From Promethearchaeota archaeon (GTDB lineage: Archaea; Asgardarchaeota; Lokiarchaeia; Sigyniarchaeales; SOKP01): DNA of 48,892 nucleotides. The position numbers and the translations under genes are program-made. The DNA is taken from the NCBI GenBank assembly GCA_048941015.1, contig JBHLNZ010000018.1, positions 1-48,892 of the forward strand, given 5' to 3'. Within the stretch, counting starts at the first letter, position 1, and each line of letters opens with the position of its first letter. This document shows positions 12,730 through 44,167 of the stretch, piece after piece. The notes beneath the pieces were generated by a model. That model was not told where the DNA came from, ran no database searches, and saw nothing but the letters and a program-made list of their open reading frames with translations.

Positions 12730-13872
12730 TTATAATCTTTTCAAATTTGGTGTTGGAAATTCTGAATCATTTACTGCGGCTTTTACATATGGAGAAATAG
12801 GGCCTCTTCCAAGTGCCATTATCCGTATTTTAGAACCAAGAGAAGGATCTAAAGCAGTTCCAAATTTTAGGGATGCTTTTCCTGGAATCTCATTTGTAAT
12901 TGTTGATATTATCTTATCTACTTTAGATAAAGAAAGCTGGTGATCCCCAGCTACAGATACAATACATCTATCGACTTTCTTAGGATCTGGTTCTAAAAGA
13001 GGATTATTTAAAGCCAGTTTTGCCTTCTTAATGAGATCTGACTCTTCTCCAAGAGATTCTGTAATACCAATTAGTCCAGAAGGACAGTTTCCTTTCTTTT
13101 CAAGAACTCTTTTTACATCTGCATAATCAATATTAATTAAACCACAATTATCTATCAGATTTAGAATCTCTCTGATACATCTTATTAAAACCTCATCCAT
13201 TATTTTAAATCCTGTAAGAATAGGTAAATCTTGATTGAATCTTAGGAGGTTATCATTAGGGATAGGTATTAGTGTATCAGAATAACTGGCAAGTTCTTTC
13301 AAGCCCTTTTTAGCCCTGATTCTTCTCTCCTTTCCTTCAGATAAAAAAGGTATAGAACAAAATGATACCACCATAGCATTATTTTTTTTAGCTTCTCTTG
13401 CAATAACGGGTGCAGCACCAGTTCCGGTACCCCCTCCTAGCCCAAAAGTAATGAATACTACATCAGCGTGTAGCGCTTCAGATATCCTTTCAATGTCCTC
13501 TTCTGCAGCAGTCGCACCTATGATAGGATCATTACCTGAGCCTAATCCATTACATGTGTCTTTTCCAATAAGTAACTTTTGCTTAGCGTTAGAATAATAT
13601 AAATCGTGAGCATCTGTATTAATGTTTAAACTATCAACATCAATTGTTCCTATATCTTGCATTCTAGATATCGTATTATTGCCTGCTCCTCCAACCCCTA
13701 CGACTAATGATTTTACTTTTAAAACTTTTAATAGATTTGATAAATATGCATCACTATCTAAATTAACTGATTTATTTGTGCTCTGATTTTGACGGGCAAT
13801 TTCATTAAATCTTGTTCTTAGAGATGATCTTGACTTTGCTAATTCAATTAAATCAAAATCTTTATCGCTCAT
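12730..13872 (-). CDS. ftsZ: Cell division protein FtsZ
   Basis: VGVGGAGNN, NTD, GLGSG..P..G..AA, GLGGGTGTGAAP, PF..EG..R, N..L, GLINIDYAD (T7 loop). Confidence 0.93.
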   Translation of the reverse strand: MSDKDFDLIELAKSRSSLRTRFNEIARQNQSTNKSVNLDSDAYLSNLLKVLKVKSLVVGVGGAGNNTISRMQDIGTIDVDSLNINTDAHDLYYSNAKQKLLIGKDTCNGLGSGNDPIIGATAAEEDIERISEALHADVVFITFGLGGGTGTGAAPVIAREAKKNNAMVVSFCSIPFLSEGKERRIRAKKGLKELASYSDTLIPIPNDNLLRFNQDLPILTGFKIMDEVLIRCIREILNLIDNCGLINIDYADVKRVLEKKGNCPSGLIGITESLGEESDLIKKAKLALNNPLLEPDPKKVDRCIVSVAGDHQLSLSKVDKIISTITNEIPGKASLKFGTALDPSLGSKIRIMALGRGPISPYVKAAVNDSEFPTPNLKRL

Positions 13873-14134
13873 GAATTAAATCAACAGGGATAGTTAAATT
13901 AATTATAATATGAGTATTATATCCGAATAATATAAGATAGTAATATGCTTGTAATATCTTCCTTAGGGTAAAAAGATACAAGTAAAAGCAATTTAGTTTC
14001 CCCTTGCTTATGTTATTAACTTAGGAAACATTTGCTATTTAAGCTTGAGAAAAATTGAGAATTAAATCTTCCTTCAAATAGAATCTTATTTCTATATTTA
14101 AATAAATTTATAAGAATGTATTTTCACTATTACT

Positions 14135-14395
14135 ATGAACGGGGTTGACTATATGGAGATTGAATATAACAAGGAGAATAGCGGACAGGCTCTAAGAAAT
14201 TCAGAATTGGAAAGTAATAAGATAAATGTCAGAGCAGTTATAAGTTGCCCCACCTGTGGCTACATAAAGAAATTTAAAAACCAATTCGCTCGAAAAGAAT
14301 TAGAATTAATGGTTGTTGCAGTAAAAGTATTCGATTGGATGGTTTGCTCTACTTGTGGAGAACTTTTAAAACTCGATTTAGAATTTAATATTTAA
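14135..14395 (+). CDS. Small Zn-binding hypothetical protein
   Basis: CPTCG...CSTCG pair; divergent from ftsZ. Confidence 0.7.
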   Translation: MNGVDYMEIEYNKENSGQALRNSELESNKINVRAVISCPTCGYIKKFKNQFARKELELMVVAVKVFDWMVCSTCGELLKLDLEFNI

Positions 14396-14433
14396 ATAAT
14401 TAATTACAATTTTTAGATTATATACTCACTAGT

Positions 14434-15744
14434 TTATATTTCAAATTTGATCTGACCGTATATACCTCCTCCTCCAGGTGTGTATTTTATTTCATCATTT
14501 CTTATTGCTTTAATTATTGAAGCAATATTTTCATCGAAATTACTTATCAAATCAATTGGTTTTTCAATTAAGATATTATATTCAGTTCCCAGCTGATGAA
14601 TAATTTTATCATAATATCCTAAAACAGTTTTACTATTTGTGCTTTTAATGTTTTTAACAGCGCGAATTATATCTATCAATGGTACTGCATTAATATATGG
14701 CGGTCTATGTTCTGGATGTATAGATTCTTTCGATGATGATATAACTCTTATTCTTTCACTCACGCCTAATTTAATTTTAAAACTTTTATTTAATTTTTCT
14801 TTACAAGCTGGGCAGATGCTTTTTTCTTTTGAAACCATATTGATGAATTCATTCTTGGCTTTTAGTGGCTCCTCGGAAAAATATATAATAAAATTATCTG
14901 TAATAGAATATTGATTAAATACTGTATTTGTTGATTTTGTTGATTTTTTAAATAAGATTCTTCTTCTACATTTATTACAAAACATATTATAATATTTACC
15001 AAGTTTAGGATGAAGTCCTACATTTAAGACAATGCGTCGAGAATCTTTCCTTCTAATAGCTAGTAAAATTTCTTCAAAAGAACCATTTTCTATTTGCATT
15101 TTATTAAATTCTCGACCTAGAGATCTAGGATCTTGAGAATGAGCATCACTATTACTTAAAAAACTTATATCTCTTAGATCAAACAATTTATCTGCGAGAT
15201 CAGTATTAGCAGATAAACCTAATTCTAAAAAATATACGTTTTTTGAAGCATCCTGATAACATTCTTTTAAGTTCTTATATTTATTTTGACGAAAAATAGC
15301 CTTAAAAGGAGTGAAAGCATGGGCGGGACCAATTAATCCTCCTAAATTTGTAATTTTATCCACTAATTCAGGTGCAGTCAAATTAACTCTAGGTCTTCCT
15401 CCCCACTCATCTAAAATATTCTTAGAGTGCAATTTTAATTGAATTTGGGCTTCCATAACCGATTTAAAATCAGGAAAAAATACTAGATGATGAATACTCT
15501 CTGAATCTTCTATTTCAGTTTGTAAAATGAAGGAAATATTCTTATACAGAAATGTCCCGTCATTAGCTTTATTAAGATTATTTTGCATATACTTTAACCA
15601 ATCTGGTTGAAGAATATCTCCTGTGGCTAAAATATCTAAACCTTTCTTCTTACAAGTATCAACCATCGTGTCTAAATTCAAAGATTTAGATACTGCAATT
15701 GAGTGAGGTGAGTGAATATGTAAATCACAATTAAAAATGTCCAT
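14434..15744 (-). CDS. Endonuclease Q family protein (PHP domain, TIGR00375-like)
   Basis: DLHIHS..S, GPAHAFTP, ELGLSA, SNSDAHS, LGREFN, P.LGKY, CxxC..CxxC, GV.ERI, H..HRPPY, PGGGG.YG. Confidence 0.88.
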   Translation of the reverse strand: MDIFNCDLHIHSPHSIAVSKSLNLDTMVDTCKKKGLDILATGDILQPDWLKYMQNNLNKANDGTFLYKNISFILQTEIEDSESIHHLVFFPDFKSVMEAQIQLKLHSKNILDEWGGRPRVNLTAPELVDKITNLGGLIGPAHAFTPFKAIFRQNKYKNLKECYQDASKNVYFLELGLSANTDLADKLFDLRDISFLSNSDAHSQDPRSLGREFNKMQIENGSFEEILLAIRRKDSRRIVLNVGLHPKLGKYYNMFCNKCRRRILFKKSTKSTNTVFNQYSITDNFIIYFSEEPLKAKNEFINMVSKEKSICPACKEKLNKSFKIKLGVSERIRVISSSKESIHPEHRPPYINAVPLIDIIRAVKNIKSTNSKTVLGYYDKIIHQLGTEYNILIEKPIDLISNFDENIASIIKAIRNDEIKYTPGGGGIYGQIKFEI

Positions 15745-17995: not shown

Positions 17996-19099
17996 TTAAT
18001 ATTTTGAAGGAGTTTTTGTTTTTATTTTATGTTTTGGTATTTCTTTAACTTTCCGTAATTCTTTCTCAAAATTTCTTTTTTCGCTAAGAAACCTTTCTTG
18101 ATCCCTTTCTAACTTCTCGCGTTCTCTCCTTATTACATTCTTTTCATTATCTATAAGTAATTTTTCTTTATCTAATTGTTTATAGTTATCATTAAGTTTT
18201 TTTAGTTTACTCTCTAAATCATTAATGTTGCGCTCTAAAGAATAATAAGTATCTTCCGCTTTAGGAATTTTTTTATTTAACTCTTTTAATCTTGCTTCTT
18301 GTTGTTTTTTTTTATTCTCCAAACTTTTTACATCATTTTCTACCTTATCTCTTAACTTTTCCAATTCAGATTTTTTTTTATCAATTTCACGAGCCTTAAG
18401 CTTTAAATCTTTTTTCTTATATCGTGATTTTTCTCGCTCTTCTTTTAATTTTCTTTTCTCATCTTCAATTCGATTCTTTTCATCATAAATTTCTCTTTTT
18501 AGATCATTAATTTCTTTTTTTATACTATCTCTTTCATTAGAGAGGCTTTTAATTTGATTTCTTAAGTCCATTAATTCATTTTCTAATTTTTCAATGGTTC
18601 TTTGTAAGGCATCTTCCCTTCTTTCCATACCTGGTATTTTAGATTTGATTTCTTTTATACGATCTTCCGCGTTATCTCTTTCTCTATGTAAATCTCTCTT
18701 TTCTTTTTCCAAATCGTCTTTTAACTTGTCTAATTTCGCTTGATAATTATTTAATTCAGCATTTTTTTGATCTAGTTCTCTTTCTTTTAATCGTAGTGCA
18801 TTTTGATTTTGCTTTTTTTCATTACTCATTCGTTGTAGGTCGCTTTGTAATTTTTCTCGTTGATTCAAAAGATCTTTAACTTCAAGTTCTTTCTCTTTTC
18901 TTTTTTTTTCAAGATCCTTTATATTGTCTTTATAACCCTCAAGCTTTTCAATTAACTTTTCCCATTCAATTGTTTCTTTCTTTAATTTAACCCTTTCTTC
19001 CTTAATTTGTTTGAGTAATTTTGCATCTGGAATTATATCTAATTCTTCTTCCGGAGTTTTTTCTCGAATTTGATATTTCGGTATTTTATTATCTTTCAT
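17996..19099 (-). CDS. Long coiled-coil protein with internal duplication
   Basis: About 320 aa of K/E/R/L heptads, short Pro-containing head and tail. Confidence 0.8.
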   Translation of the reverse strand: MKDNKIPKYQIREKTPEEELDIIPDAKLLKQIKEERVKLKKETIEWEKLIEKLEGYKDNIKDLEKKRKEKELEVKDLLNQREKLQSDLQRMSNEKKQNQNALRLKERELDQKNAELNNYQAKLDKLKDDLEKEKRDLHRERDNAEDRIKEIKSKIPGMERREDALQRTIEKLENELMDLRNQIKSLSNERDSIKKEINDLKREIYDEKNRIEDEKRKLKEEREKSRYKKKDLKLKAREIDKKKSELEKLRDKVENDVKSLENKKKQQEARLKELNKKIPKAEDTYYSLERNINDLESKLKKLNDNYKQLDKEKLLIDNEKNVIRREREKLERDQERFLSEKRNFEKELRKVKEIPKHKIKTKTPSKY

Positions 19100-19294
19100 A
19101 TTATCATGATGGCCTTTTCTTCTTAATAAAATAAATGTGTAATAATTCTAAAGTTTTAGTACCATAAAAGCAAAAATATAATTTAATCAATATCCTAATT
19201 TCATTTATATAATAAGACAATCATTATTTATATACAATATAATAAGAAGAAAATTCAAAATAATTTTAATCATCCGTATGAAGGTGGTAAATCT

Positions 19295-19684
19295 TTGGAT
19301 TTTGATGAGGAATTTGATGAGGAATTTGATGAAGATTTGGATGAAGATCTAGATGATGAATTAGATGAACCTACTGTAAAGAGTCCTGAAGAAGAAGTTA
19401 AATCCAAAACTCCTACTATAAAAACACCTGCTAAAGGAAAAAAGATTTCAGTATTCTTTTTATCTACTATTGGGCCTGGTGAGAAAAAACAAAAACTTTT
19501 AGTTTATACTGGAAATAAGATAGGAGATATAAAAGAAACTGTTGCTAATTTATTCGGTCTAGATCCTAGAGATTTTCATTTATCATCTGGCGGAATTACC
19601 ATGGAAGAGGACGCTGCATTAAGTGAATATAATGTAGTTGAGGGAGATGACATTTTACTGATTCCAGCAAGCACTGCTGGTTAA
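19295..19684 (+). CDS. Ubiquitin-like modifier 1 (acidic N-terminal extension; mature C-terminus ...IPASTAG)
   Basis: Beta-grasp pattern: I.DIK..V...FGL.P..F.L...G..M.ED..L.EYNV.EGD.I.L; SD AAGGTGG then TTG. Confidence 0.88.
   Translation: MDFDEEFDEEFDEDLDEDLDDELDEPTVKSPEEEVKSKTPTIKTPAKGKKISVFFLSTIGPGEKKQKLLVYTGNKIGDIKETVANLFGLDPRDFHLSSGGITMEEDAALSEYNVVEGDDILLIPASTAG
19301..19369 (+). repeat. 12-bp coding tandem repeat x6 encoding (F/L)D(E/D)(E/D)
   Basis: tttgatgaggaa x2, tttgatgaagat, ttggatgaagat, ctagatgatgaa, ttagatgaa. Confidence 0.8.
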
Positions 19685-19724: not shown

Positions 19725-20519
19725 TTATTTTTTTTCTTTTCTAGAAGGAATTAAAACTATTTCATCATCATCTTCTATGTTATAATCAATAATTTCTAAA
19801 TTTTCATCCAATATTATGCCTCCAGAAGATAACACAAAATTGCTTAGATCATAATTAAATAAAATTGCGATCTTTTCTTTAATTTCAATTACCAATTCAG
19901 AAGTTTCAATAATAATTATTTTTGTTTTTTCACCCGGTTCTATTAATGATCTAATGTAAACTCGGATTTTATCTTGCATTCCAATATTTATTTTAGGTGG
20001 GGTAAAAATGATTTCTTGATCAGTATTATCTTTGTTTCTAAACATATCTTCAATTAATTGATTTCTTTCCTGAGGAGAAAAATATAATAATTCTCTTAAG
20101 AAAAATATTTTATCCATTTTTGAAAGATCTAACAGATTTATTTTATCTAATTCCTCTGGAGTAAAAACTGAAAATATATAGTCATCCATTGTATCTACAT
20201 CTTCAAACAATTCATTTGAATTCGCGTATTTATCTATTAAAGGCATTGCATCAAAATAATCCTCAATAAATTCATTTGATTGTTTTTTTAGTGATTTCTG
20301 CTTTGAAATATATTTAGGTTTTATGATTCTTTTATCTGGAATAGATCTAGATTGTATTATTGTATAAATGGTACCAGTAGATAATACTGCCATACTGCTA
20401 ATATTAAAAATAACATAAAATGGAAGAGAGTCTATTTTTAAGAAGAAGAGAATAATGTAGATTAAGATGAAAATGAAGTAAAGAGCGATTAAGCTAAAGA
20501 ATCTATAGTTTCTTCTCAT
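19725..20519 (-). CDS. Membrane-anchored protein with C-terminal ubiquitin-like domain lacking a terminal Gly
   Basis: Two N-terminal TM helices; last about 80 aa align with the two Ubls (S.I.PGEK, EIKE.I..LF, F.LSSGG, DYNI.D.DEI.LIP); ends SRKEKK. Confidence 0.85.
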   Translation of the reverse strand: MRRNYRFFSLIALYFIFILIYIILFFLKIDSLPFYVIFNISSMAVLSTGTIYTIIQSRSIPDKRIIKPKYISKQKSLKKQSNEFIEDYFDAMPLIDKYANSNELFEDVDTMDDYIFSVFTPEELDKINLLDLSKMDKIFFLRELLYFSPQERNQLIEDMFRNKDNTDQEIIFTPPKINIGMQDKIRVYIRSLIEPGEKTKIIIIETSELVIEIKEKIAILFNYDLSNFVLSSGGIILDENLEIIDYNIEDDDEIVLIPSRKEKK

Positions 20520-20601
20520 GGTTATTATTCAATTTTTTTCTAATTTTCTAATGTGTCTTTTAAAATATAAATTCAATTGGAATAAATTTGAAATTTAAAT
20601 C

Positions 20602-21273
20602 TTATCTATTAATCATTGATTTGATTAAATTTTGATATCTATCTAAATCTAACATAAATATTGTTTTTTTATTTTCCTTTTCGGTTTTTACTATTTTTAA
20701 ATCACTTAAAATATTAAGGTATTTTTTAATTGTGTTATAGTTCTTTTTTAATTGAGTTGCTATATCTGTTAATTTTAATTTTTTATTTTCTCTTTTCATA
20801 AACTCAATTATTTGTTTTGTAATATCTTGATTTAAGTAATAATAAAGTTCATCAAATTCTGGATTTGATTCAAAATGAAAAATTATTCGTTGATTTTCAA
20901 TTTTTCTTGACCTAGTAAATTGAAATTTTTCCAAGCATGAAAGATGCCAGAGAGCTTGATTGCTTCCAATATTTATCGCTCTCATGATTTCATTAATATT
21001 GGATGGATTCTTCTTGATATAATTATAAATTTCATTTCTTATTGGATGCTCAATAATGTTATTTCTCATTAATTTCGTTCCTGGAATTAATATTCGTTTT
21101 TTAATTAGTTTTTTAATGATTTTCTCAATCATATTCCTATTTAAATAAGGATAACCTCTTGCCCTATTACTAATAAAACTTATAATATCTTCTAGTGAAA
21201 AGAAGGGCTTCTTTTTTAAGTATTCCTTAACTAATTCAAAAACGACAGAATCAACTTTATCAGGAGAACTCAT
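20602..21273 (-). CDS. Multi-winged-helix transcriptional regulator
   Basis: R.EIY.YIK.NP..INEI.RA...G.....WHL..L and TDIA..L...YNTI.KYL..L wHTH segments. Confidence 0.8.
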   Translation of the reverse strand: MSSPDKVDSVVFELVKEYLKKKPFFSLEDIISFISNRARGYPYLNRNMIEKIIKKLIKKRILIPGTKLMRNNIIEHPIRNEIYNYIKKNPSNINEIMRAINIGSNQALWHLSCLEKFQFTRSRKIENQRIIFHFESNPEFDELYYYLNQDITKQIIEFMKRENKKLKLTDIATQLKKNYNTIKKYLNILSDLKIVKTEKENKKTIFMLDLDRYQNLIKSMINR

Positions 21274-21516
21274 AATTTATTTCTTTGATTTTATTGAGAA
21301 ATTTACACTTTACATCCAAATCTTCTCTCTAAAACGATATTTTCTACCTTATATATATTATTAGATGTTCATTTAATTTATAGATATATCTTAGTAAAAT
21401 TCGAATAGAATTAAATTAGCTTTTAAAAATTTCAAATTCATTCCAAAGGGTTTTATAATACTATATTTTCATGTTTTTAATAAAAAAAAAACACATAAAA
21501 GAAAGAAGTGATTTGA

Positions 21517-21852
21517 ATGAGTTTTAAAGAAAATTTTGATGAGGAATTAGAACCTGTCAAATCTAAAACACCAATATCTAAAACTCCTGCAGCAGGAAGA
21601 AAATTAACTTTATATTTCATGTCTACCATAGGGCCTGGTGAAAAAAAGGAAAAGTTAATCGTAAATGACGCTAACTATGTAAGAGATATAAAGCAAACCT
21701 TAGGAAATTTATTTGGACTTGATCCTGATGAGTTTCATTTATCATCTGGTGGAGTGACTATGGATGAAGATAATCAATTGAGAGATTACAATGTAAATGA
21801 CGGCGACGATATTCTTTTGATTCCTGCCAGTACTGCGGGTAAACTTATATAA
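21517..21852 (+). CDS. Ubiquitin-like modifier 2 (pro-form, ...IPASTAG-KLI)
   Basis: Paralog of 19295..19684; L.DYNV.DGD.I.L ubiquitin-like signature; first gene of the E1-E2-JAMM-RING run. Confidence 0.9.
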   Translation: MSFKENFDEELEPVKSKTPISKTPAAGRKLTLYFMSTIGPGEKKEKLIVNDANYVRDIKQTLGNLFGLDPDEFHLSSGGVTMDEDNQLRDYNVNDGDDILLIPASTAGKLI

Positions 21853-21875
21853 ATATTCTTCATAAATTATAATAT

Positions 21876-21912
21876 AAAGGCTTTAAGCCTTTCATTTTTT
21901 TTATTTTTTTAT
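21876..21912 (+). terminator. Hairpin AAAGGCT-TTA-AGCCTTT followed by T-tract between Ubl2 and E1
   Basis: Perfect inverted repeat 21876-21892 then catttttttttatttttt-type run. Confidence 0.45.
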
Positions 21913-21932
21913 TAATATGGATAGTGATAATA

Positions 21933-23156
21933 ATGGATAAAAATTCAGATTTTTTTGCAAAAGAATTGTCTATCGAAGAGAGAAACTTATATGATCGGCA
22001 GTTCCGTCTCGAGGGGTGGTCACAAAAATTAGTAAAGAACTCAAGAATATTAATTATTGGCATTGGAGGATTAGGGTGCGAAATTGCTAAAAATCTAGCT
22101 ATGTTAGGTTTGGGCCACTTGGATCTTGTTGATTTAGATATTATTGAGCATTCTAATTTAAACCGTCAAATTCTTTTCACGGGGGCTAAGATAGGAGCAC
22201 CTAAAGCTGTTGTAGCAGCTAAAAAATTATCAGAAATAAATCCTAATATTGTTGTTAAAGGATATCACACTTCACTTGAGCGGTTAGACCCTGCAATATA
22301 TCAAAATGCAGACGTTATTATCGGGGGTCTTGACTCAATGAATGCACGATTAAACTTAAATACTCAATGTATACGATTTAGAAAACCATTAGTAGATGGA
22401 GGGGTATCTGGTTATCATGGTCATATATATACGATCTTTCCTTATGAAAATGCTTGCTATGAATGTAATCCCTTACCTGAAGTAGAAAGCGATGAAATGG
22501 CAGCATGTACTGTGGTTGGAATACCACGGAAACGGATTCATTGTGTTTTTAAAGGAGATATGGCATTTAGAGAAAAATTTGATAGAGATCCAAATCCAAA
22601 AGATATAAACGATATAGAATTTATTCAAAAGTTTGCAAATGATTTGGTAAATAAACATAATTTTTTACCGGAATATACCGCAGATGATATAGTGAAAATC
22701 CTTGATAGACACGATCCTGGGATAATTACTATAAATGCAGTTATTTCTGCTCTACAATCACATGAGGCTATAAAAATTCTCCATTGGAATAAGGGACATA
22801 AAGGATTAGGAGAACCAATAAAAAGTTATGTAATTTTTAATGCAATGACAATGAAATTCTATCATATTGAAAAACCGAGAAATCCAGATTGTTCTCAATG
22901 TGGTAAAAAAGTTCGAAGAGTAGCTATAAAAATGAGATCTCAATCACCCTGTATAAATATAATTAAGATATTGGAGAAAAATGGATTTAAATTAGAACCT
23001 GATTTTGAACCTGTTATAACTTTGCTAGATTTCAATGAGATTAAAGTAATTGATTTAGAAAAAACTCCAATTAATAATGGTTTAAGAAATTACGAATTTT
23101 TAACCGTTGCAGGATTTATGGGTGGAGAAATTTATGTAACTTTAAAATTAAAATAA
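21933..23156 (+). CDS. Ubiquitin-like activating enzyme E1 (ThiF domain plus catalytic-Cys domain plus UFD-like tail; UBA2/UBA3-like)
   Basis: YDRQ, GIGGLGCE, D.D.IE.SNLNRQ.LF, LDS..AR, CYEC, catalytic AACT...PR...HC, NAVI, CSQC. ATG 21933 or GTG 21924. Confidence 0.93.
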   Translation: MDKNSDFFAKELSIEERNLYDRQFRLEGWSQKLVKNSRILIIGIGGLGCEIAKNLAMLGLGHLDLVDLDIIEHSNLNRQILFTGAKIGAPKAVVAAKKLSEINPNIVVKGYHTSLERLDPAIYQNADVIIGGLDSMNARLNLNTQCIRFRKPLVDGGVSGYHGHIYTIFPYENACYECNPLPEVESDEMAACTVVGIPRKRIHCVFKGDMAFREKFDRDPNPKDINDIEFIQKFANDLVNKHNFLPEYTADDIVKILDRHDPGIITINAVISALQSHEAIKILHWNKGHKGLGEPIKSYVIFNAMTMKFYHIEKPRNPDCSQCGKKVRRVAIKMRSQSPCINIIKILEKNGFKLEPDFEPVITLLDFNEIKVIDLEKTPINNGLRNYEFLTVAGFMGGEIYVTLKLK

Positions 23157-23258
23157 CTTTTAAATCAAAAAATGTTTTTAATAAAATTTGATGAAATAGG
23201 CATTTATAAAAGAGAAAATTTTTAATATTAAATTAAAGAATAAAAAAGTGTTTAGAAA

Positions 23259-23786
23259 ATGAGTATAAGAAGTAGTCGGGTATCCCGTGATTTTGCGGGA
23301 CTAAAAAAAATGCTTAAAGAAGGGAGTCTTGTTCAGTTAATACCATTTAATCCTAAAAACAAAAGTATTGATCACTTAGCGTTAACAATTAAAGGCCCTA
23401 AAGGTACTGCTTATTCAGGTGGACTTTTTAAATTAGAAATGAAGTTCCCTACTCAATATCCGAAGCAACCACCTTTTGTAAGAATGCATACTCCTATTTG
23501 GCACCCCAACTTTTGGCCAAAACCGAGTGAATATAAAGGTCAAAGAAATATTTGCCTAGCATTAATAGATCCATCTTTAATTGGACAAAAAGGTGGATGG
23601 AGCCCATCAAAAACTGCTGTAACAGTTGTTCAGGCAATAATTGCTATGTTAAACACTCGAGGTAAATTTGTAAATCCAACAGATGTTTTTAATAAAAAGG
23701 CAGCCATGGAAATGATGAAAAACCCTAAGTTTTTTGAGAGAAAAGTTAAAAATTTAGTTAAAAAGTATGCTAAAAGTAAGTGGTGA
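23259..23786 (+). CDS. Ubiquitin-conjugating enzyme E2 (UBC fold)
   Basis: I.GP.GT.Y.GG.F.L...FP..YP..PP.V...TPIWHPN...ICL, W.P; catalytic Cys codon at 23553. Confidence 0.95.
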   Translation: MSIRSSRVSRDFAGLKKMLKEGSLVQLIPFNPKNKSIDHLALTIKGPKGTAYSGGLFKLEMKFPTQYPKQPPFVRMHTPIWHPNFWPKPSEYKGQRNICLALIDPSLIGQKGGWSPSKTAVTVVQAIIAMLNTRGKFVNPTDVFNKKAAMEMMKNPKFFERKVKNLVKKYAKSKW

Positions 23787-23794
23787 AATTTAAA

Positions 23795-24613
23795 ATGGGA
23801 GAGTTAAATAAACATAGAGCATCTATTAAAGAAGAAATAAAGACAAAAATTAAGGAAATAATCAAGAAAGAATTGTTAGAAGAAATCTATGAAGAATTAA
23901 AGTTAGAAGAAAAAGAACTAGTTAATGAAATTAGTACTATGATTACAAAAAGGGTACCTGAAATGCAAACAATAAAACATTCAAATAATCAAGCTCCCAT
24001 AGAAGCCACAATAAAAAAAGAGCAACTAAAAGTAATTCCTATAGATAATATTGAAAAAGAAGTATACATTTCAGTTAAAGCGATTTTAAAGGTCGCTAGT
24101 CATGCACTAAAATATGCTAATTCAAAGGTTCCAAGAAATAATTGGGTAGAAGTTATAGGTTTACTTGCAGGTAAATTAGATAATAAAAATGGAGTCTTAC
24201 ATATCGAGGATTACTATCCTATGGGGCATGGAACGGCTGTTTATGCTGAAATAAAAGATTATAAAAATTATGCCAGGGCATTTAGAGATATTAAAAGAGA
24301 GAAATTATTTATATGTGGTTGGGCACATAGTCATCCTTCTTATGGTTGTTTTATGAGTAATGAGGATATTGGGACTCAATCGAGGTATCAAACTCTCTGG
24401 GATAAAGCTGTTGCACTAGTTATTGATCCTTACCTTATTGATGGAACATCTGCAGGTTTTGAAATCTATCGTGCAGATCTGAAAACAAGAACCTGGTACC
24501 CTTTAGTATATGGTATTAAAGGATCTTTAGATATAAGAATGTTGCCTGAAATCTTAGAATTTATGAATCCTATAATTCAAGGGAAACCAGCTTATTTAGA
24601 ATATGATGAATAG
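23795..24613 (+). CDS. JAMM/MPN+ metalloisopeptidase (Rpn11/CSN5-like) with N-terminal helical extension
   Basis: VYIS..A.LK...HA, EVIGLL.G, GW.HSHP.YG.F.S..D..TQ, A.VIDP. ATG 23795 follows SD GGTGA overlapping the E2 stop. Confidence 0.93.
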   Translation: MGELNKHRASIKEEIKTKIKEIIKKELLEEIYEELKLEEKELVNEISTMITKRVPEMQTIKHSNNQAPIEATIKKEQLKVIPIDNIEKEVYISVKAILKVASHALKYANSKVPRNNWVEVIGLLAGKLDNKNGVLHIEDYYPMGHGTAVYAEIKDYKNYARAFRDIKREKLFICGWAHSHPSYGCFMSNEDIGTQSRYQTLWDKAVALVIDPYLIDGTSAGFEIYRADLKTRTWYPLVYGIKGSLDIRMLPEILEFMNPIIQGKPAYLEYDE

Positions 24614-24645
24614 TAAATTAAAATATATTTGGTGATAATGAAACT

Positions 24646-25779
24646 GTGGCTAAAAAGAAGGTTTTAGCAATAATTTTCATTCTTTTTTTAATAATTGGTA
24701 TAATACACGGTGCAATTATCTCAACTTCATTAAATATTTTTTTAACTTGGCCACTTATCGGTCTATGGATCATCTTTACACTTAAGATTTTAGAAAATGT
24801 AAAAAGGCATCGAGAATTTAATTCTCCACACAACACTGCTTTTTTTGTTATGATTCCTTTATTTATCGGAATTTTTTATTCTATTTGGGGTTATTTTACA
24901 GGAATATTAGGTGAGAATCTGATTGAAGGTTCAAATTTATATTTCAGTTGGTGGAGTATTATTTTCGGATTTCCATTTGTACTTTATGGATCTTTTTCAT
25001 TATATCGTTGTTTTAAGAAATATAATGTAATCTATTTTGGAACTAAATCAGTAAAAGCTAAAGCAGTAGGATACGTTTTAAGTTTCATTATTATTCTTTT
25101 TATTGTGATATACTGGATAGCATTTTATGCATTTATGGAGTTTTATAATTCTCCGTTAATCCCATTTCACTTCTCTTTAGATCTTAATCTTTTACTGGTT
25201 TTAATTATGACAATCTTAATACTAATTGTTTTTGGATTTATTAACTCACAAAGATCGTTACCATCGTTAACTCGTGATTATATTACCCAACGATCAAGAA
25301 GATTAAACGCATTAACATCTGCATCCACACTTAATTCTCCAAATAGACAAAATAGGTCAGCCAGACCGAGCCGATCATCTAGAACAACTACGCGTACCAC
25401 CATAAGAGCAACACCAAATATACTTAGGCGAACAACTAAAACTAAAACAAGAGTGACTACTCAGACTAAAAGTATAAAAGTTCGAGACTTTACAAAATAT
25501 AGACCGAAAGCATCATATTTATCTGTAGAAGATTTTAAGTGCATTTTCTGTTTTAAGTTGCCAAAACTACCAGAAGATCGAGGAAGAGGGATAGTTATAT
25601 GCCCAAACTGTAGATATCCTGCACATGCAGATGAATTCAAAGATTGGATGAGAACGTCAAATCTTTGTTCAAGATGCAGTGCTCCTATTTCATCTAACTA
25701 TAGAAGAAATCCTAAAATAATTAGTGTAAAGGATTATTTAGTTATTTGTTCGCATTTTGTAAAGAAAAAGAATCAGTAA
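24646..25779 (+). CDS. Polytopic membrane protein with C-terminal RING-like finger, putative E3 ligase
   Basis: Six hydrophobic segments, R/S/T-rich linker, C-x2-C-x16-C-x2-C-x4-H-x2-E-x3-W-x6-C-x2-C (25540-25677); operonic with E1/E2/JAMM. Confidence 0.8.
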   Translation: MAKKKVLAIIFILFLIIGIIHGAIISTSLNIFLTWPLIGLWIIFTLKILENVKRHREFNSPHNTAFFVMIPLFIGIFYSIWGYFTGILGENLIEGSNLYFSWWSIIFGFPFVLYGSFSLYRCFKKYNVIYFGTKSVKAKAVGYVLSFIIILFIVIYWIAFYAFMEFYNSPLIPFHFSLDLNLLLVLIMTILILIVFGFINSQRSLPSLTRDYITQRSRRLNALTSASTLNSPNRQNRSARPSRSSRTTTRTTIRATPNILRRTTKTKTRVTTQTKSIKVRDFTKYRPKASYLSVEDFKCIFCFKLPKLPEDRGRGIVICPNCRYPAHADEFKDWMRTSNLCSRCSAPISSNYRRNPKIISVKDYLVICSHFVKKKNQ

Positions 25780-41217: not shown

Positions 41218-42612
41218 TTGAGTGATTTAGAAGGTTTAACAAGAAGACTCTTAAAAAAAGGATTTTCTGATGAAAATATAATTATGCGACTAATTACCGA
41301 GTATTTAGACTTTAAAGAGATAGAGAGAGATGTCGCTCTTAAATATGCTCAAGCTATTTTAGAAGAATGCAAAAAAAGTGATATTGAAAATGTTTCTAAT
41401 CCATTTGTTAAAAATTTATTAGATTTTAATAAATCGAATATAACCGTTGGGAAACAAGGTGTTGGGTGCCGAGGGATTGGGGACTTTTTTGTTCATAAAT
41501 TAATCGCAAATTTATCAGAGACAGAATCTAAAGCATATTTAGCACCTAGCTCATTAGATGACGCGGGAGCCGTTCGTTTAAAAGATATAGCTTGGCTAAA
41601 ACATCACGGTTATGGTGAAGATTTAATAATTGTATCAAAAATGGAGGGAATACATTCAAGATTAAGCGATTTTCCCTTTATTTGTGGATTTCATGTGACA
41701 AGAGCTGCGTTAAGAGATCTATATGTAAAGGGAGCCAAGCCAATTTCGATTATGATAGATGCTCATCTTGGAGATGATGCTGACGTAGGAAAATTATTTG
41801 ATTTTATGGCAGGAGTGTCTACTATATCAGAGTTAGCTGGAGTTCCTATTACAGCAGGTTCCACACTAAGAATTGGAGGTGATATGGTAATAGGAGACAG
41901 ATTTGTGGGTGGGATTGGAGCAATAGGAATTACTAAGAAAGTTTTAGCTAGAAGGAACATAGAGCCGGGAGATAAAATTTTAATGACGGAAGGTGCTGGG
42001 GGAGGTACTATAACCACAACCGCAATTTATTCTGGAAATCATGATATTGTCGAACAAACACTTAATATTAAATTTCTAGAAGCATGCGAAATCATTCTCT
42101 CCTCGGAATATATCGATCAAATCCATGCTATGTGTGATGTAACAAACGGAGGTCTTAGAGGGGATTTATATGAAATTAATTATGAAGCTAAGTGTGGAGT
42201 AACCATTTTTGAAAATGAAATCAGAAAACTTGTTAATCCAAAAGTTCTTAAGTTGTTAAATAAAGCAGGTGTAGATTATCTTGGAGTATCATTAGATGCT
42301 CTTTTAATATATTGTCCAGAAAAAATTACTCCTATAATAATTAAGAATCTTAAAAAACATAATATCCTATGCGCTGAAATAGGATATGTTAATAGTTCAA
42401 AACAAATTACGATGATTTATGAAGAGAATCAAAAGGAAGACATTTTACCACGTTTTCGAGAATCTGCTTATACCAAAATTAAGCAAGCAATAGGAGAAGA
42501 GACTCCTGAAAACAAAGAATCAATGGAAAAAATTGTAATGAAAACAGCAGAAATGGCTTTGGAAAAAAGGACAAAAGTAATTGATTTTGTTAAAGGACGA
42601 TCAAATATCTAG
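41218..42612 (+). CDS. AIR synthase-related (PurM/HypE/ThiL-like) protein, archaeal family
   Basis: GVGCRG.GDF..H, DDAG, G.HSRLS.FP, A.LRD..V.G, GSTLRIGGD, D.TNGG.RGD. Confidence 0.85.
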   Translation: MSDLEGLTRRLLKKGFSDENIIMRLITEYLDFKEIERDVALKYAQAILEECKKSDIENVSNPFVKNLLDFNKSNITVGKQGVGCRGIGDFFVHKLIANLSETESKAYLAPSSLDDAGAVRLKDIAWLKHHGYGEDLIIVSKMEGIHSRLSDFPFICGFHVTRAALRDLYVKGAKPISIMIDAHLGDDADVGKLFDFMAGVSTISELAGVPITAGSTLRIGGDMVIGDRFVGGIGAIGITKKVLARRNIEPGDKILMTEGAGGGTITTTAIYSGNHDIVEQTLNIKFLEACEIILSSEYIDQIHAMCDVTNGGLRGDLYEINYEAKCGVTIFENEIRKLVNPKVLKLLNKAGVDYLGVSLDALLIYCPEKITPIIIKNLKKHNILCAEIGYVNSSKQITMIYEENQKEDILPRFRESAYTKIKQAIGEETPENKESMEKIVMKTAEMALEKRTKVIDFVKGRSNI

Positions 42613-43422
42613 GATTTCATTCATTGAGCCAGATCTAAAACCTTCTAAGTCAATAGTGATATAACAGAAACCTAAGTCCTTGAATTTATCTTTAATTATC
42701 TGTAAATTCTTAGCATTTAAAATTTTTAACATTTCATTTTGTAAAAGTTCAATACGAGCTAATTTTTCATCGTGGTATCTTACTCGCAATTGAGTTAGCG
42801 GAAAATTATCTTTTAAGAATTTTTCTGCTTCTTTTATCATTTTTAGTTTTTCTTCATCAATTATTTGATTATAGGGAATTCTAGATGAAAAACATGCCAT
42901 GGAAGGCTTTGATTTAACATCTAATTTATAAAAATCTGAAATTTCTCTTATTTCTTGTTTTGTAATCTTATAGTCTATATAAGGTGTCGAGATATCTAAT
43001 TCTTTTAATGCCTGCATTCCAGGTCTATAATCGGAAAGATCATCTAAGTTTGATCCATCAAGGATAATATCAAAATTCTTTTTATTTTTAATTTTAGTAA
43101 TATCTGAATATAAACCGGTTTTGCAGATATAACATCTGTTTAGAGGATTTTTTTTAAATTGTTCATCTTCAAGAGGATTTCTTTCAATAATAACATGAGA
43201 TATATCATAATATTTTGCAAATTCAATTGCTTCTTTAATTTCTTCATCAGGATAAAGAATTGATTTTTCAGTTACAAGAAGAGTTTCATCTGAGAACTTT
43301 TTCGAAAGAAATGCTAATAGACTGCTATCAACCCCACCTGAGAATGCGACTATTACTTTTTTATTCATTAAAAAAGAACTAAGATTTTGGAGTTTCTGCT
43401 TTAATTGTTTTGATAAATCCAT
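42601..43422 (-). CDS. larE: ATP-dependent sacrificial sulfur transferase LarE
   Basis: AFSGGVDS, N...RCY.CK, DG.N.DD..DYRPG, KPS.AC.SSRIPY, RVR.H...ARIE, DL.GFRSGSMN. Confidence 0.93.
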   Translation of the reverse strand: MDLSKQLKQKLQNLSSFLMNKKVIVAFSGGVDSSLLAFLSKKFSDETLLVTEKSILYPDEEIKEAIEFAKYYDISHVIIERNPLEDEQFKKNPLNRCYICKTGLYSDITKIKNKKNFDIILDGSNLDDLSDYRPGMQALKELDISTPYIDYKITKQEIREISDFYKLDVKSKPSMACFSSRIPYNQIIDEEKLKMIKEAEKFLKDNFPLTQLRVRYHDEKLARIELLQNEMLKILNAKNLQIIKDKFKDLGFCYITIDLEGFRSGSMNEILDI

Positions 43423-43513
43423 TGCTATTCTAAAGACTAATAAAATGAAAAAGATAATAAATCTTTATTTTAAGAAATATAAAAAATACAAATGTTTATA
43501 TATAATGGATATA

Positions 43514-43548
43514 ATACTATTCATAGTATAGTATCTAATAAATACTAT
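43514..43548. promoter_or_regulatory. Clustered ATACTAT/ATAGTAT half-sites upstream of padR, candidate autoregulatory operator
   Basis: ATACTAT (43514) TC ATAGTAT (43523), overlapping ATAGTAT (43528), ATACTAT (43542). Confidence 0.45.
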
Positions 43549-43648
43549 TTTATTCAAAAAATCGAAATTATTATACAAAAAGGCTATATATGAACATTTT
43601 TAATATAAAAAAAAAACAAAAAATATTTAAAAAATGGAGTTGAAGTAG

Positions 43649-44167
43649 ATGATAAAACGAGTAAAAGGATTGGATCCACAATTTCAAGATTATGCATCCA
43701 AAATTGAGTCTGAAATAAATCGAGGACTTTCAACACTATGCATCTTATCGATTATTAATCAATATGGTGAGGATGGAGTACATGGATATCAAATATCGAA
43801 GGATTTATTGGATCGAACAAATGAAATGCTAGTTATCGAAGAAGGTACATTATATCCAATACTGCGAAAACTTCAAGATGAAGGTATCATTAAATCAGAA
43901 CGAGAAAAAGAAGGTAGAAGAAGAAAGTATTATTTTATGACTGATTATGGTATAAAACTATTCAATTACCTATCTGGCTTTTACTCTAAATTAAGTGAAG
44001 CGATTGCATCGCTATTTGATGTGAATGTCCATTTAAAACAAGATCGATATTTATATTGTCCAATGTGCGCAAATAAGATTGAACTAACAAATTTAGAATT
44101 GCGCTATTGTGATGTATGTGGACATAACATCGAAAAAGAATTACATGAAAGGGGTTTAGTAAAATGA
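43649..44167 (+). CDS. PadR family transcriptional regulator with C-terminal zinc ribbon
   Basis: HGYQI, EGTLYP.LRKL...G.I, R.RKYY..T..G; CPMC...CDVCG. Confidence 0.92.
   Translation: MIKRVKGLDPQFQDYASKIESEINRGLSTLCILSIINQYGEDGVHGYQISKDLLDRTNEMLVIEEGTLYPILRKLQDEGIIKSEREKEGRRRKYYFMTDYGIKLFNYLSGFYSKLSEAIASLFDVNVHLKQDRYLYCPMCANKIELTNLELRYCDVCGHNIEKELHERGLVK

Follow-up and report, generated by a model that had tools for sequence, protein, structure and literature searches.

A membrane-anchored, non-conjugatable ubiquitin-like protein paired with a triple winged-helix protein in an Asgard archaeal tagging gene cluster: a candidate anti-regulator

Why does an archaeon keep, next to the operon for a ubiquitin-like tagging system, a further copy of the modifier that is anchored in the membrane and carries a dead tail? 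This question is raised by a contig from a Promethearchaeota archaeon of the order Sigyniarchaeales (contig C29, JBHLNZ010000018.1), which was analysed over its whole length of 48.9 kb (hereafter the window) and belongs to a 3.59-Mb genome assembly of 144 contigs with a G+C content of about 28%. The gene in question, here called TM-Ubl, encodes a protein with transmembrane (TM) helices and a C-terminal ubiquitin-like (Ubl) domain, and an earlier note on this DNA had described it as a possible membrane-tethered decoy or adaptor that could form an opposing regulatory unit with a co-directional gene for a winged helix-turn-helix (wHTH) protein. The answer towards which we lean, and which we hold to be moderately probable, is that TM-Ubl is a membrane-anchored anti-regulator of the SdpI/SdpR or anti-sigma type that uses the dead Ubl domain as its input. 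Research treats the ubiquitin-like systems of Asgard archaea as forerunners of eukaryotic ubiquitylation, and we know of nothing that has been established about their control.

A three-helix module and its winged-helix partner

TM-Ubl is encoded by an open frame without interruption (Table 1). Its AlphaFold2 model, calculated from an alignment of 66 homologues (mean predicted local distance difference test, pLDDT, 62.5), consists of four parts, namely two TM helices, a low-confidence linker (residues 41-116), a three-helix unit and a beta-grasp domain. Hydropathy, the model, the Pfam profile PF00240 and BLASTP thus agree with the earlier note on two TM helices, a helical middle region and a C-terminal Ubl homologous to two modifiers, and sequence comparison indicates that the middle region is a module in its own right and not a spacer. 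The module comprises about 55 amino acids with modelled helices at residues 121-129, 134-144 and 149-161 (pLDDT 66-84), and its profile matches TM-Ubl after TM helix 2 and the linker (hmmsearch, residues 108-166, E 1.3e-30). Among 1.84 billion representative proteins, the profile retrieved only 294 clusters, with the module nearly always at the extreme C-terminus; a folded domain following it was found only in the relatives of TM-Ubl, and the Ubl is the sole such domain. There is no Pfam or NCBIfam family for the module, nor one for an ectodomain-bearing sibling encoded on contig C15 of the same genome, and neither database gave a match anywhere in TM-Ubl outside the Ubl domain. A feature search of the ESM Atlas with residues 84-170 returned no usable match. 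Whole-protein genome searches also match residues ~30-170 in unrelated large proteins. These sibling module proteins consist of an ectodomain at the N-terminus, a single TM helix aligning with TM helix 2 of TM-Ubl, and one or two three-helix units at the extreme C-terminus; among their ectodomains are a WD40/PQQ-like propeller and a concanavalin-like domain, and the majority lack a Pfam match. In BLASTP, the alignments with sibling proteins begin at residues 28-34 of TM-Ubl.

Genes for the module usually adjoin a gene for a paralogue of the wHTH protein. The module is present in 94 of 101 genomes of the archaeal family, with up to about 20 matches per genome. The genome studied here has exactly two module proteins, and each adjoins one of the two closest wHTH paralogues. 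Across 30 loci sampled from the order, an immediate wHTH neighbour on the same strand accompanies all 15 TM-Ubl genes and 11 of the 15 unrelated module genes. When five multi-copy genomes were inspected, 30 of 56 module genes had a wHTH paralogue no more than 300 bp downstream, and about eight more appeared, judged by open-frame lengths, to have one directly upstream. Such an arrangement is typical of two-gene signalling cassettes in which the sensor varies.

The second module gene of the genome lies on contig C15 (assembly G000, 42370-43662 on the minus strand; L049:6371-7663) and encodes a protein of 430 amino acids that runs from a signal-like N-terminus through an ectodomain without a Pfam match and a single TM helix to the module at its C-terminus. 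A triple winged-helix paralogue (41689-42333 on the minus strand; L049:5690-6334) is encoded 37 bp downstream of it. Its product is the closest paralogue of the wHTH protein encoded in the window (E 1e-26).

In the window, the wHTH gene is located 82 bp upstream of the TM-Ubl gene in the same direction. The AlphaFold2 model of its product (pLDDT 89.7) has three winged-helix domains. Pfam HTH_5 is matched with 26.5 bits (cut-off 22), and the NCBIfam models for ArsR/SmtB (36.5 bits, E 3e-9) and for the SdpR family (35.1 bits, E 9e-9), the latter corresponding to the third winged helix, are both matched below their curated cut-offs, which limits these assignments to the domain level. Taken singly, the domains resemble DNA binders of the ArsR/SmtB, SdpR-family, Lrs14 and CzrA types by sequence and by fold (target TM-scores 0.70-0.73).

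A complex was predicted for the wHTH protein (alignment of 32 sequences) and residues 80-170 of TM-Ubl, alongside three controls. The median score was 0.63 for the pair versus 0.00 for the best of the three controls, a mark that 58 of 80 solved complexes and two of 110 mismatched pairs attain, although these counts are only a rough guide with custom alignments. Contact agreement between the runs was at least 52%, and the pLDDT of the partner was at least 60. The prediction thus favours binding of the module by the wHTH protein. On the wHTH side the predicted interface involves residues 73, 76, 94 and 103-117 and falls on helix 104-116, the third or 'recognition' helix of the second winged helix; on the side of TM-Ubl it spans residues 130-170. 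It includes W109, K116 and F117 of the wHTH protein and E143 and E151 of the module, all of which are invariant across paralogues of about 30% identity, and the pair K116-E151 is among the contacts with the lowest expected error. A unit of TM-Ubl with the co-directional wHTH gene is therefore the part of the earlier note that has gained the best support, from gene pairing and predicted complex alike.

The dead ubiquitin-like domain and the gene cluster

TM helix 1 reaches a hydropathy maximum of 2.93 (Kyte-Doolittle) and is modelled as a helix at residues 3-26; its mean pairwise identity in the 66 homologues is 62%. TM helix 2 (Kyte-Doolittle segment 33-55, modelled helix 32-46) follows after a loop of five residues and is the most conserved segment of the protein, with 80% identity versus the 62% of TM helix 1. 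One might speculate that such conservation fits an intramembrane partner or a cleavage site. Both ends of TM-Ubl are probably cytoplasmic according to the positive-inside rule, because the N-terminus (MRRNYR) is basic and nine lysine or arginine residues occur within residues 56-90, after TM helix 2. The low-confidence linker contains a motif, EDYF[DE]AMPLIDxYA, with 72% identity, and a comparable stretch is found in some of the sibling proteins. In total, 49 columns are invariant across the 66 homologues, including those of the module core and of the Ubl core.

The C-terminal domain matches Pfam ubiquitin (PF00240) at residues 195-257 with 31.1 bits (cut-off 25.4) and shares 37% identity with free Ubl1 (21517-21852, E 5e-20) and 42% with free Ubl2 (E 3e-18) in BLASTP, a likeness far beyond chance, so that the domain is clearly to be regarded as a paralogue of both free modifiers. 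The motifs PGEK, LSSGG, DYN and LIP are common to all three proteins, as the earlier note had pointed out. In the model, strands 184-191, 198-205, 228-232 and 252-258 and helix 210-221 (pLDDT 70-92) form the beta-grasp fold of the ubiquitin family (beta-beta-alpha-beta-beta-(3-10)-beta), and Foldseek relates the modelled domain to ubiquitin, ISG15 and the ubiquitin of Caldiarchaeum (6fno_D) with target TM-scores of about 0.79-0.91, those for ubiquitin and ISG15 being 0.84-0.91; this domain dominates the matches of the full-length model. With a mean identity of 76% and an invariant IPSRK tail, the domain is under constraint. Its end differs from that of the modifiers: TM-Ubl terminates in IPSRKEKK where the free copies read IPASTAG, and in the orthologues IPSRK is followed by zero to three charged residues. 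None of the 66 homologues ends in glycine, the last residue being K (49 cases), N (10) or I, T, Q, Y or D, and neither AG nor GG occurs beyond the LIP strand of TM-Ubl. The view that TM-Ubl is a tethered, non-conjugatable paralogue of the modifiers, with ASTAG replaced by SRKEKK, has thus held, and a role as a conjugatable modifier is ruled out.

Some observations concern other Ubl proteins. Both free modifiers end in AG and not in GG, the pattern being AS[TVI]AG followed by zero to six residues that vary between genomes (18-19 genomes). In the window, Ubl2 has no residue beyond AG and Ubl1 is extended by KLI, a split into 'ready' and 'precursor' forms that is not conserved across genomes. In a protein of 307 amino acids encoded on contig C6 of genome G018 (L045:1583-2506, plus strand), a Ubl domain that looks conjugatable, with STAG at the stop codon, is fused to an N-terminal part that weakly resembles Roadblock/LC7. 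In another family of the order, proteins of 583-585 amino acids (L046:6692-8449, minus strand; L047:714-2465, plus strand) combine a vWA domain with a Ubl ending in ASTAG plus a tail, and the one in L046 adjoins a homologue of the coiled-coil gene described below. Finally, in a sister genus (G069), two paralogues (L088:12703-13470 and 13765-14658, plus strand) directly follow the gene for the TM-RING protein; they have an N-terminal CxxC region, a helical middle part and a C-terminal Ubl ending in SSTAG plus five to seven residues, and look like modifiers with large N-terminal extensions.

How widespread is the tethered form? A database of 5.8 billion proteins contains 401 homologues of TM-Ubl, mostly of 262-264 amino acids and annotated at most as 'ubiquitin-like protein' or 'hypothetical protein'. 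Among species-representative genomes, full-length TM-Ubl occurs in four genera of one family (30 of 36, 32 of 35, 4 of 10 and 3 of 6 genomes), with 46-73% identity between orthologues across these genera; with the whole protein as a query, it was not found in nine other sampled genera of the family or in other families of the order. A set of 18 larger loci shares one and the same gene order, with the coiled-coil gene (minus strand), Ubl2 (plus), TM-Ubl and wHTH (both minus) and Ubl1-E1-E2-JAMM-TM-RING (plus), which says little by itself given that the wider neighbourhood is syntenic as well. The related genomes compared are not independent. In four genomes of sister genera, on the other hand, a single Ubl-E1-E2-JAMM-TM-RING operon is transcribed divergently from the directly adjoining coiled-coil gene, and no second Ubl, wHTH or TM-Ubl gene is present at the operon. 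Ubl2, TM-Ubl and wHTH therefore constitute a lineage-specific insertion at the promoter of the operon. The linkage to the operon in related genomes on which the earlier note had made its proposal depend does exist, in four genera.

This distribution bears on the alternative, in essence the inference of the earlier note taken by itself, that the tethered Ubl is a membrane adaptor or decoy resembling HERP/Usa1, TMUB or the membrane-anchored ubiquitin-fold (MUB) proteins and acts by directly recruiting or inhibiting E1, E2, JAMM, the six-TM RING ligase, the proteasome or Cdc48, while wHTH is merely a neighbouring regulator. PGEK, LSSGG and LIP are kept in TM-Ubl and are modelled at the beta1-beta2 loop, at beta3-beta4 and in beta5, which we take to be the positions of the main binding patch of ubiquitin. 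The ligase of the operon is also a polytopic membrane protein, and the unusual conservation of TM helix 2 would suit an intramembrane partner. Sister genera, however, run the same operon without TM-Ubl, and the middle part of the protein is a module common to many ectodomain proteins that are unrelated to Ubl and paired with wHTH genes; moreover, the domain order is the reverse of that in HERP, and a CAAX box is lacking. Conjugation machinery that exists without TM-Ubl argues for a lineage-specific regulatory add-on and not for a core adaptor, so that the idea of a HERP- or MUB-like core component, which takes up the parallels named in the earlier note, is weakened. We consider a mere adaptor or decoy unlikely, though such a role is compatible with the anti-regulator proposed here.

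Two further genes of the cluster deserve mention. The product of the last gene of the operon (24646-25779, plus strand) is hydrophobic in several segments and has a linker rich in R, S and T as well as a Cys-rich finger at its C-terminus; it gave no match in Pfam or NCBIfam, and homologues share 34-42% identity between genera, much below E1 or E2. The coiled-coil protein (17996-19099, minus strand, 367 amino acids in the window) is encoded divergently from the first Ubl gene throughout the genera examined, and the divergent coiled-coil/Ubl pair is also found in genera without TM-Ubl and in one genome of another family. This protein may belong to the Ubl system.

Table 1. Features of the TM-Ubl locus; positions refer to the window
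Feature	Position	Strand	Description
TM-Ubl gene	19725..20519	-	264 amino acids: membrane hairpin, linker, three-helix module, dead ubiquitin-like domain
TM helix 1	20439..20501	-	Residues ~7-27; replaces the ectodomain of sibling module proteins
TM helix 2	20355..20423	-	Residues ~33-55, S/T/G-rich; equivalent to the single TM of sibling module proteins
EDYF[DE]AMPLIDxYA motif	20220..20270	-	Residues 84-100, conserved, inside the low-confidence linker
Three-helix cytoplasmic module	20034..20174	-	Residues 116-162, profile match 108-166; predicted wHTH-binding surface
Ubiquitin-fold domain	19746..19973	-	Residues 183-258; PF00240, AlphaFold2, Foldseek
Basic tail SRKEKK	19728..19745	-	In place of the ASTAG conjugation tail; IPSRK near-invariant
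Triple winged-helix protein (wHTH)	20602..21273	-	223 amino acids; predicted partner, likely regulator
TM-Ubl promoter	20560..20593	-	21-nt element 20573-20593, then TATA-like box 20560-20572; in the 82-bp gap after the wHTH gene
Operon promoter	21430..21463	+	21-nt element 21430-21450, then TATA box; before the Ubl1-E1-E2-JAMM-RING operon
Ubl1-E1-E2-JAMM-TM-RING operon	21517..25779	+	Ubl1 (ends ASTAG-KLI), E1 (ThiF), E2 (UQ_con), JAMM; Pfam and synteny
Free Ubl2	19295..19684	+	No residue after ASTAG; gene convergent with that of TM-Ubl

A shared promoter element and the circuit it suggests

The intergenic region between the divergent wHTH and Ubl1 genes contains a strongly conserved element directly before the TATA box of the operon, with the consensus CTTCAAAATCATTCCAATTGG, which is kept in all 17 aligned orthologous regions. 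When a matrix was derived from the Ubl1-operon sites only, the second-best site in the window was located before the TM-Ubl gene (16.5 versus 9.2 for the next), in sense orientation; 17 of 18 orthologous loci carry it at the corresponding position. A 21-nt matrix built on both sets of sites gives as its top two matches in the 3.59-Mb genome the operon (29.1 bits) and TM-Ubl (27.7 bits), a rank that is partly given by construction, the matrix having been trained on both sites, such that the gap to the rest is the informative part: the third match (21.6 bits) lies within an open reading frame without a TATA box, and the remainder score 16.5 or less. Six loci of a second genus have both sites, the TM-Ubl site being weaker in some of them. 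In the four sister-genus genomes without wHTH and TM-Ubl, the element was not found before the Ubl operon. Neither was it found before Ubl2 or the coiled-coil gene, and a search with a position matrix for a second copy of the Ubl1 element in the wHTH/Ubl1 and coiled-coil/Ubl2 intergenic regions yielded nothing above shuffled controls; exact words of 7-10 nt common to these two regions were TATA-like A/T words only. A separate conserved element, TTCTAAAGTGTTTG in most orthologues, is present in the coiled-coil/Ubl2 intergenic region (19140-19160) and is distinct from the 21-nt element. TM-Ubl hence seems to be transcribed from a promoter of its own, under joint control with the tagging operon. 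Element and regulator occur together, and we infer that the wHTH protein binds the element.

The circuit we propose would work as follows. The module would bind the triple wHTH protein at the recognition helix of its second winged helix, and the tether would thereby hold this regulator at the membrane, probably off the DNA. The regulator, in turn, would most likely act at the 21-nt element of the two promoters, those of the tagging operon and of the TM-Ubl gene, in one direction or the other; tether and tagging machinery would then share their control, and the tether would act back on the very regulator that controls it. In place of the extracellular sensor domain of the siblings, the input would be the cytoplasmic ubiquitin-fold domain, which keeps loops of the free modifiers but can be neither activated nor trimmed to a glycine, and which may serve as a modifier mimic that is never consumed. 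Through this domain the Ubl machinery or a Ubl receptor could alter the duration or the strength of the hold on the regulator. A tentative candidate for the way in which this input operates is that free modifier and conjugates compete with the domain, and delivery of the tether for extraction and turnover appears a more doubtful one.

Several points weigh against this proposal. The case for binding of module and wHTH protein draws on the confidence of a model, and the fold of the partner is itself only moderately confident in that model (pLDDT 60-64). For 4 of 15 and for about 17 of 56 module genes, the DNA inspected around them holds no adjacent wHTH gene. The training of the genomic matrix on both sites has been mentioned; in addition, the co-occurrence of element and cassette rests on few independent lineages, and the element abuts the TATA box and could therefore be an unusual transcription factor B recognition element or core-promoter feature that is read by another factor. 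The role and the binding partners of the Ubl domain are entirely inferred. Tandem winged helices, finally, serve as protein scaffolds too.

The last point leads to the alternative that the triple winged-helix protein is not a transcription factor and acts as a scaffold like the ESCRT-II subunits or UFL1 with DDRGK1, with the module proteins as its docking sites and TM-Ubl together with the winged-helix protein as a platform at the membrane for Ubl ligation or sorting. Searched with Foldseek at full length, the wHTH protein indeed finds its best matches in the tandem winged-helix scaffolds Rpc34, TFIIIC, UFL1/DDRGK1 and ESCRT-II (E ~1e-4), its 'recognition' helix is used for a protein contact in the predicted complex, and the pair is located within a Ubl gene cluster. 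These matches are poor, however (TM-scores 0.24-0.30, rmsd, root-mean-square deviation, >11 Å), whereas the single domains match ArsR, CzrA, SdpR and Lrs14 DNA binders. Furthermore, the many paralogous pairs with varied ectodomains resemble signalling cassettes, and the shared promoter element co-occurs with the pair. A scaffold is accordingly an improbable explanation in our eyes, more so than an adaptor. That TM-Ubl is a decaying paralogue or a chance fusion without specific function is hardly credible: in conservation it ranks last among the genes of the cluster (52-73% identity versus 84-92% for E2) and limited to four genera, but its frame is intact in about 70 genomes, its invariant columns and its tail are conserved, and it has its own conserved promoter element.

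The anti-regulator reading would make the locus a concrete and testable circuit of a soluble winged-helix regulator, a tether with a modifier mimic and a shared operator-like element, all components of which are small and could be expressed in E. coli. Sequestration of regulators at the membrane and membrane-bound UBL-domain proteins of eukaryotes are already known. New are the module family and its pairing with triple winged-helix proteins, and also the dead modifier copy as the proposed cytoplasmic input of such a pair within a eukaryote-type ubiquitylation cluster of an Asgard archaeon; a search of a literature library found no paper that describes TM-Ubl or its cassette, which is not proof of absence. 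Pairs of three-helix module and triple winged-helix proteins may be a major route of transmembrane signalling in these archaea; archaea have, to our knowledge, no sigma factors.

Comparison with known systems

The closest parallel is provided by SdpI/SdpR of Bacillus subtilis, in which a membrane protein sequesters an autoregulatory winged-helix protein of the ArsR type at the cytoplasmic face of the membrane, the genes being adjacent with that of the regulator first and the regulator controlling the expression of the membrane protein (PMC2910880). Here, too, a gene for an ArsR/SdpR-type winged-helix protein, as far as the domain-level match goes, adjoins the gene for a membrane protein on the same strand at a distance of 82 bp. 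TM-Ubl is not a homologue of SdpI by its Pfam and NCBIfam matches, which are confined to the Ubl domain; SdpI is a polytopic protein with six TM helices and dissimilar to the module, whereas TM-Ubl has two. The regulator of the archaeal pair has three winged helices, and its binding and DNA recognition are predicted only. The signals differ as well, SdpI responding to an extracellular toxin and TM-Ubl carrying a cytoplasmic ubiquitin-like domain.

Pairs of anti-sigma factors and sigma factors of the extracytoplasmic function (ECF) type, such as RseA-sigmaE, RsiW-sigmaW and RsgI-SigI, offer a second comparison; there, the partner itself controls expression of the anti-factor. The likeness lies in many paralogous two-gene cassettes per genome, whose single-pass membrane proteins vary in the outside domain and hold the regulator by a small, conserved domain in the cytoplasm. 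The partner here, in contrast, is a triple winged-helix protein and not a member of the sigma-70 family, the module is C-terminal and not N-terminal, and TM-Ubl is without any outside domain.

HERP (HERPUD1)/Usa1 and TMUB1 are membrane UBL-domain proteins of ligase complexes for endoplasmic reticulum-associated degradation (ERAD), and MUBs occur in plants and animals. They share with TM-Ubl an integral, non-conjugated ubiquitin fold that faces the cytosol at a membrane, in a system with a multi-pass RING ligase, and HERP also shares a TM hairpin with both ends in the cytosol. The order of hairpin, module and Ubl in TM-Ubl is the reverse of that in HERP, and similarity is confined to the Ubl fold; unlike all of these proteins, TM-Ubl carries a predicted regulator-binding module, and its gene is dispensable in sister genera with the same operon. 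Membership of the HERP/Usa1 group is ruled out by the reversed architecture, and membership of the MUBs by the lack of a CAAX box and of a cysteine near the C-terminus, the anchor being an N-terminal TM hairpin.

Caldiarchaeum subterraneum possesses an archaeal operon for eukaryote-type ubiquitylation that comprises Ub, E1, E2 and RING together with a homologue of Rpn11. The operon in the window likewise has a Ubl, a ThiF-type E1, a UQ_con E2 and a JAMM protein, and the modelled Ubl superposes on 6fno_D. The modifiers of the archaeon studied here end in AG rather than GG, and we know of neither a membrane-anchored dead Ubl nor a dedicated tethered regulator in the Caldiarchaeum system.

In eukaryotes, Spt23/Mga2 and Nrf1/NFE2L1 are factors inserted in the membrane that are released by ubiquitylation, Cdc48 and proteolysis, and Nrf1 controls genes of the very system that acts on it. 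The resemblance is one of concept only, a regulator held at the membrane whose availability is tied to the ubiquitin system; the archaeal factor is soluble and held by a separate tether, and there is no homology. We nevertheless entertain, as a rather unlikely extension of the anti-regulator proposal, that the tethered dead Ubl gauges the ubiquitin-like system, with the free modifier, its conjugates or an unfoldase/proteasome competing for it or acting on it and so setting the release of the regulator that drives the operon. Such a gauge would be a prokaryotic counterpart of the logic of Nrf1, Rpn4 or Spt23, in the archaeal lineage nearest to eukaryotes, built from an otherwise unknown family of receptor-regulator cassettes.

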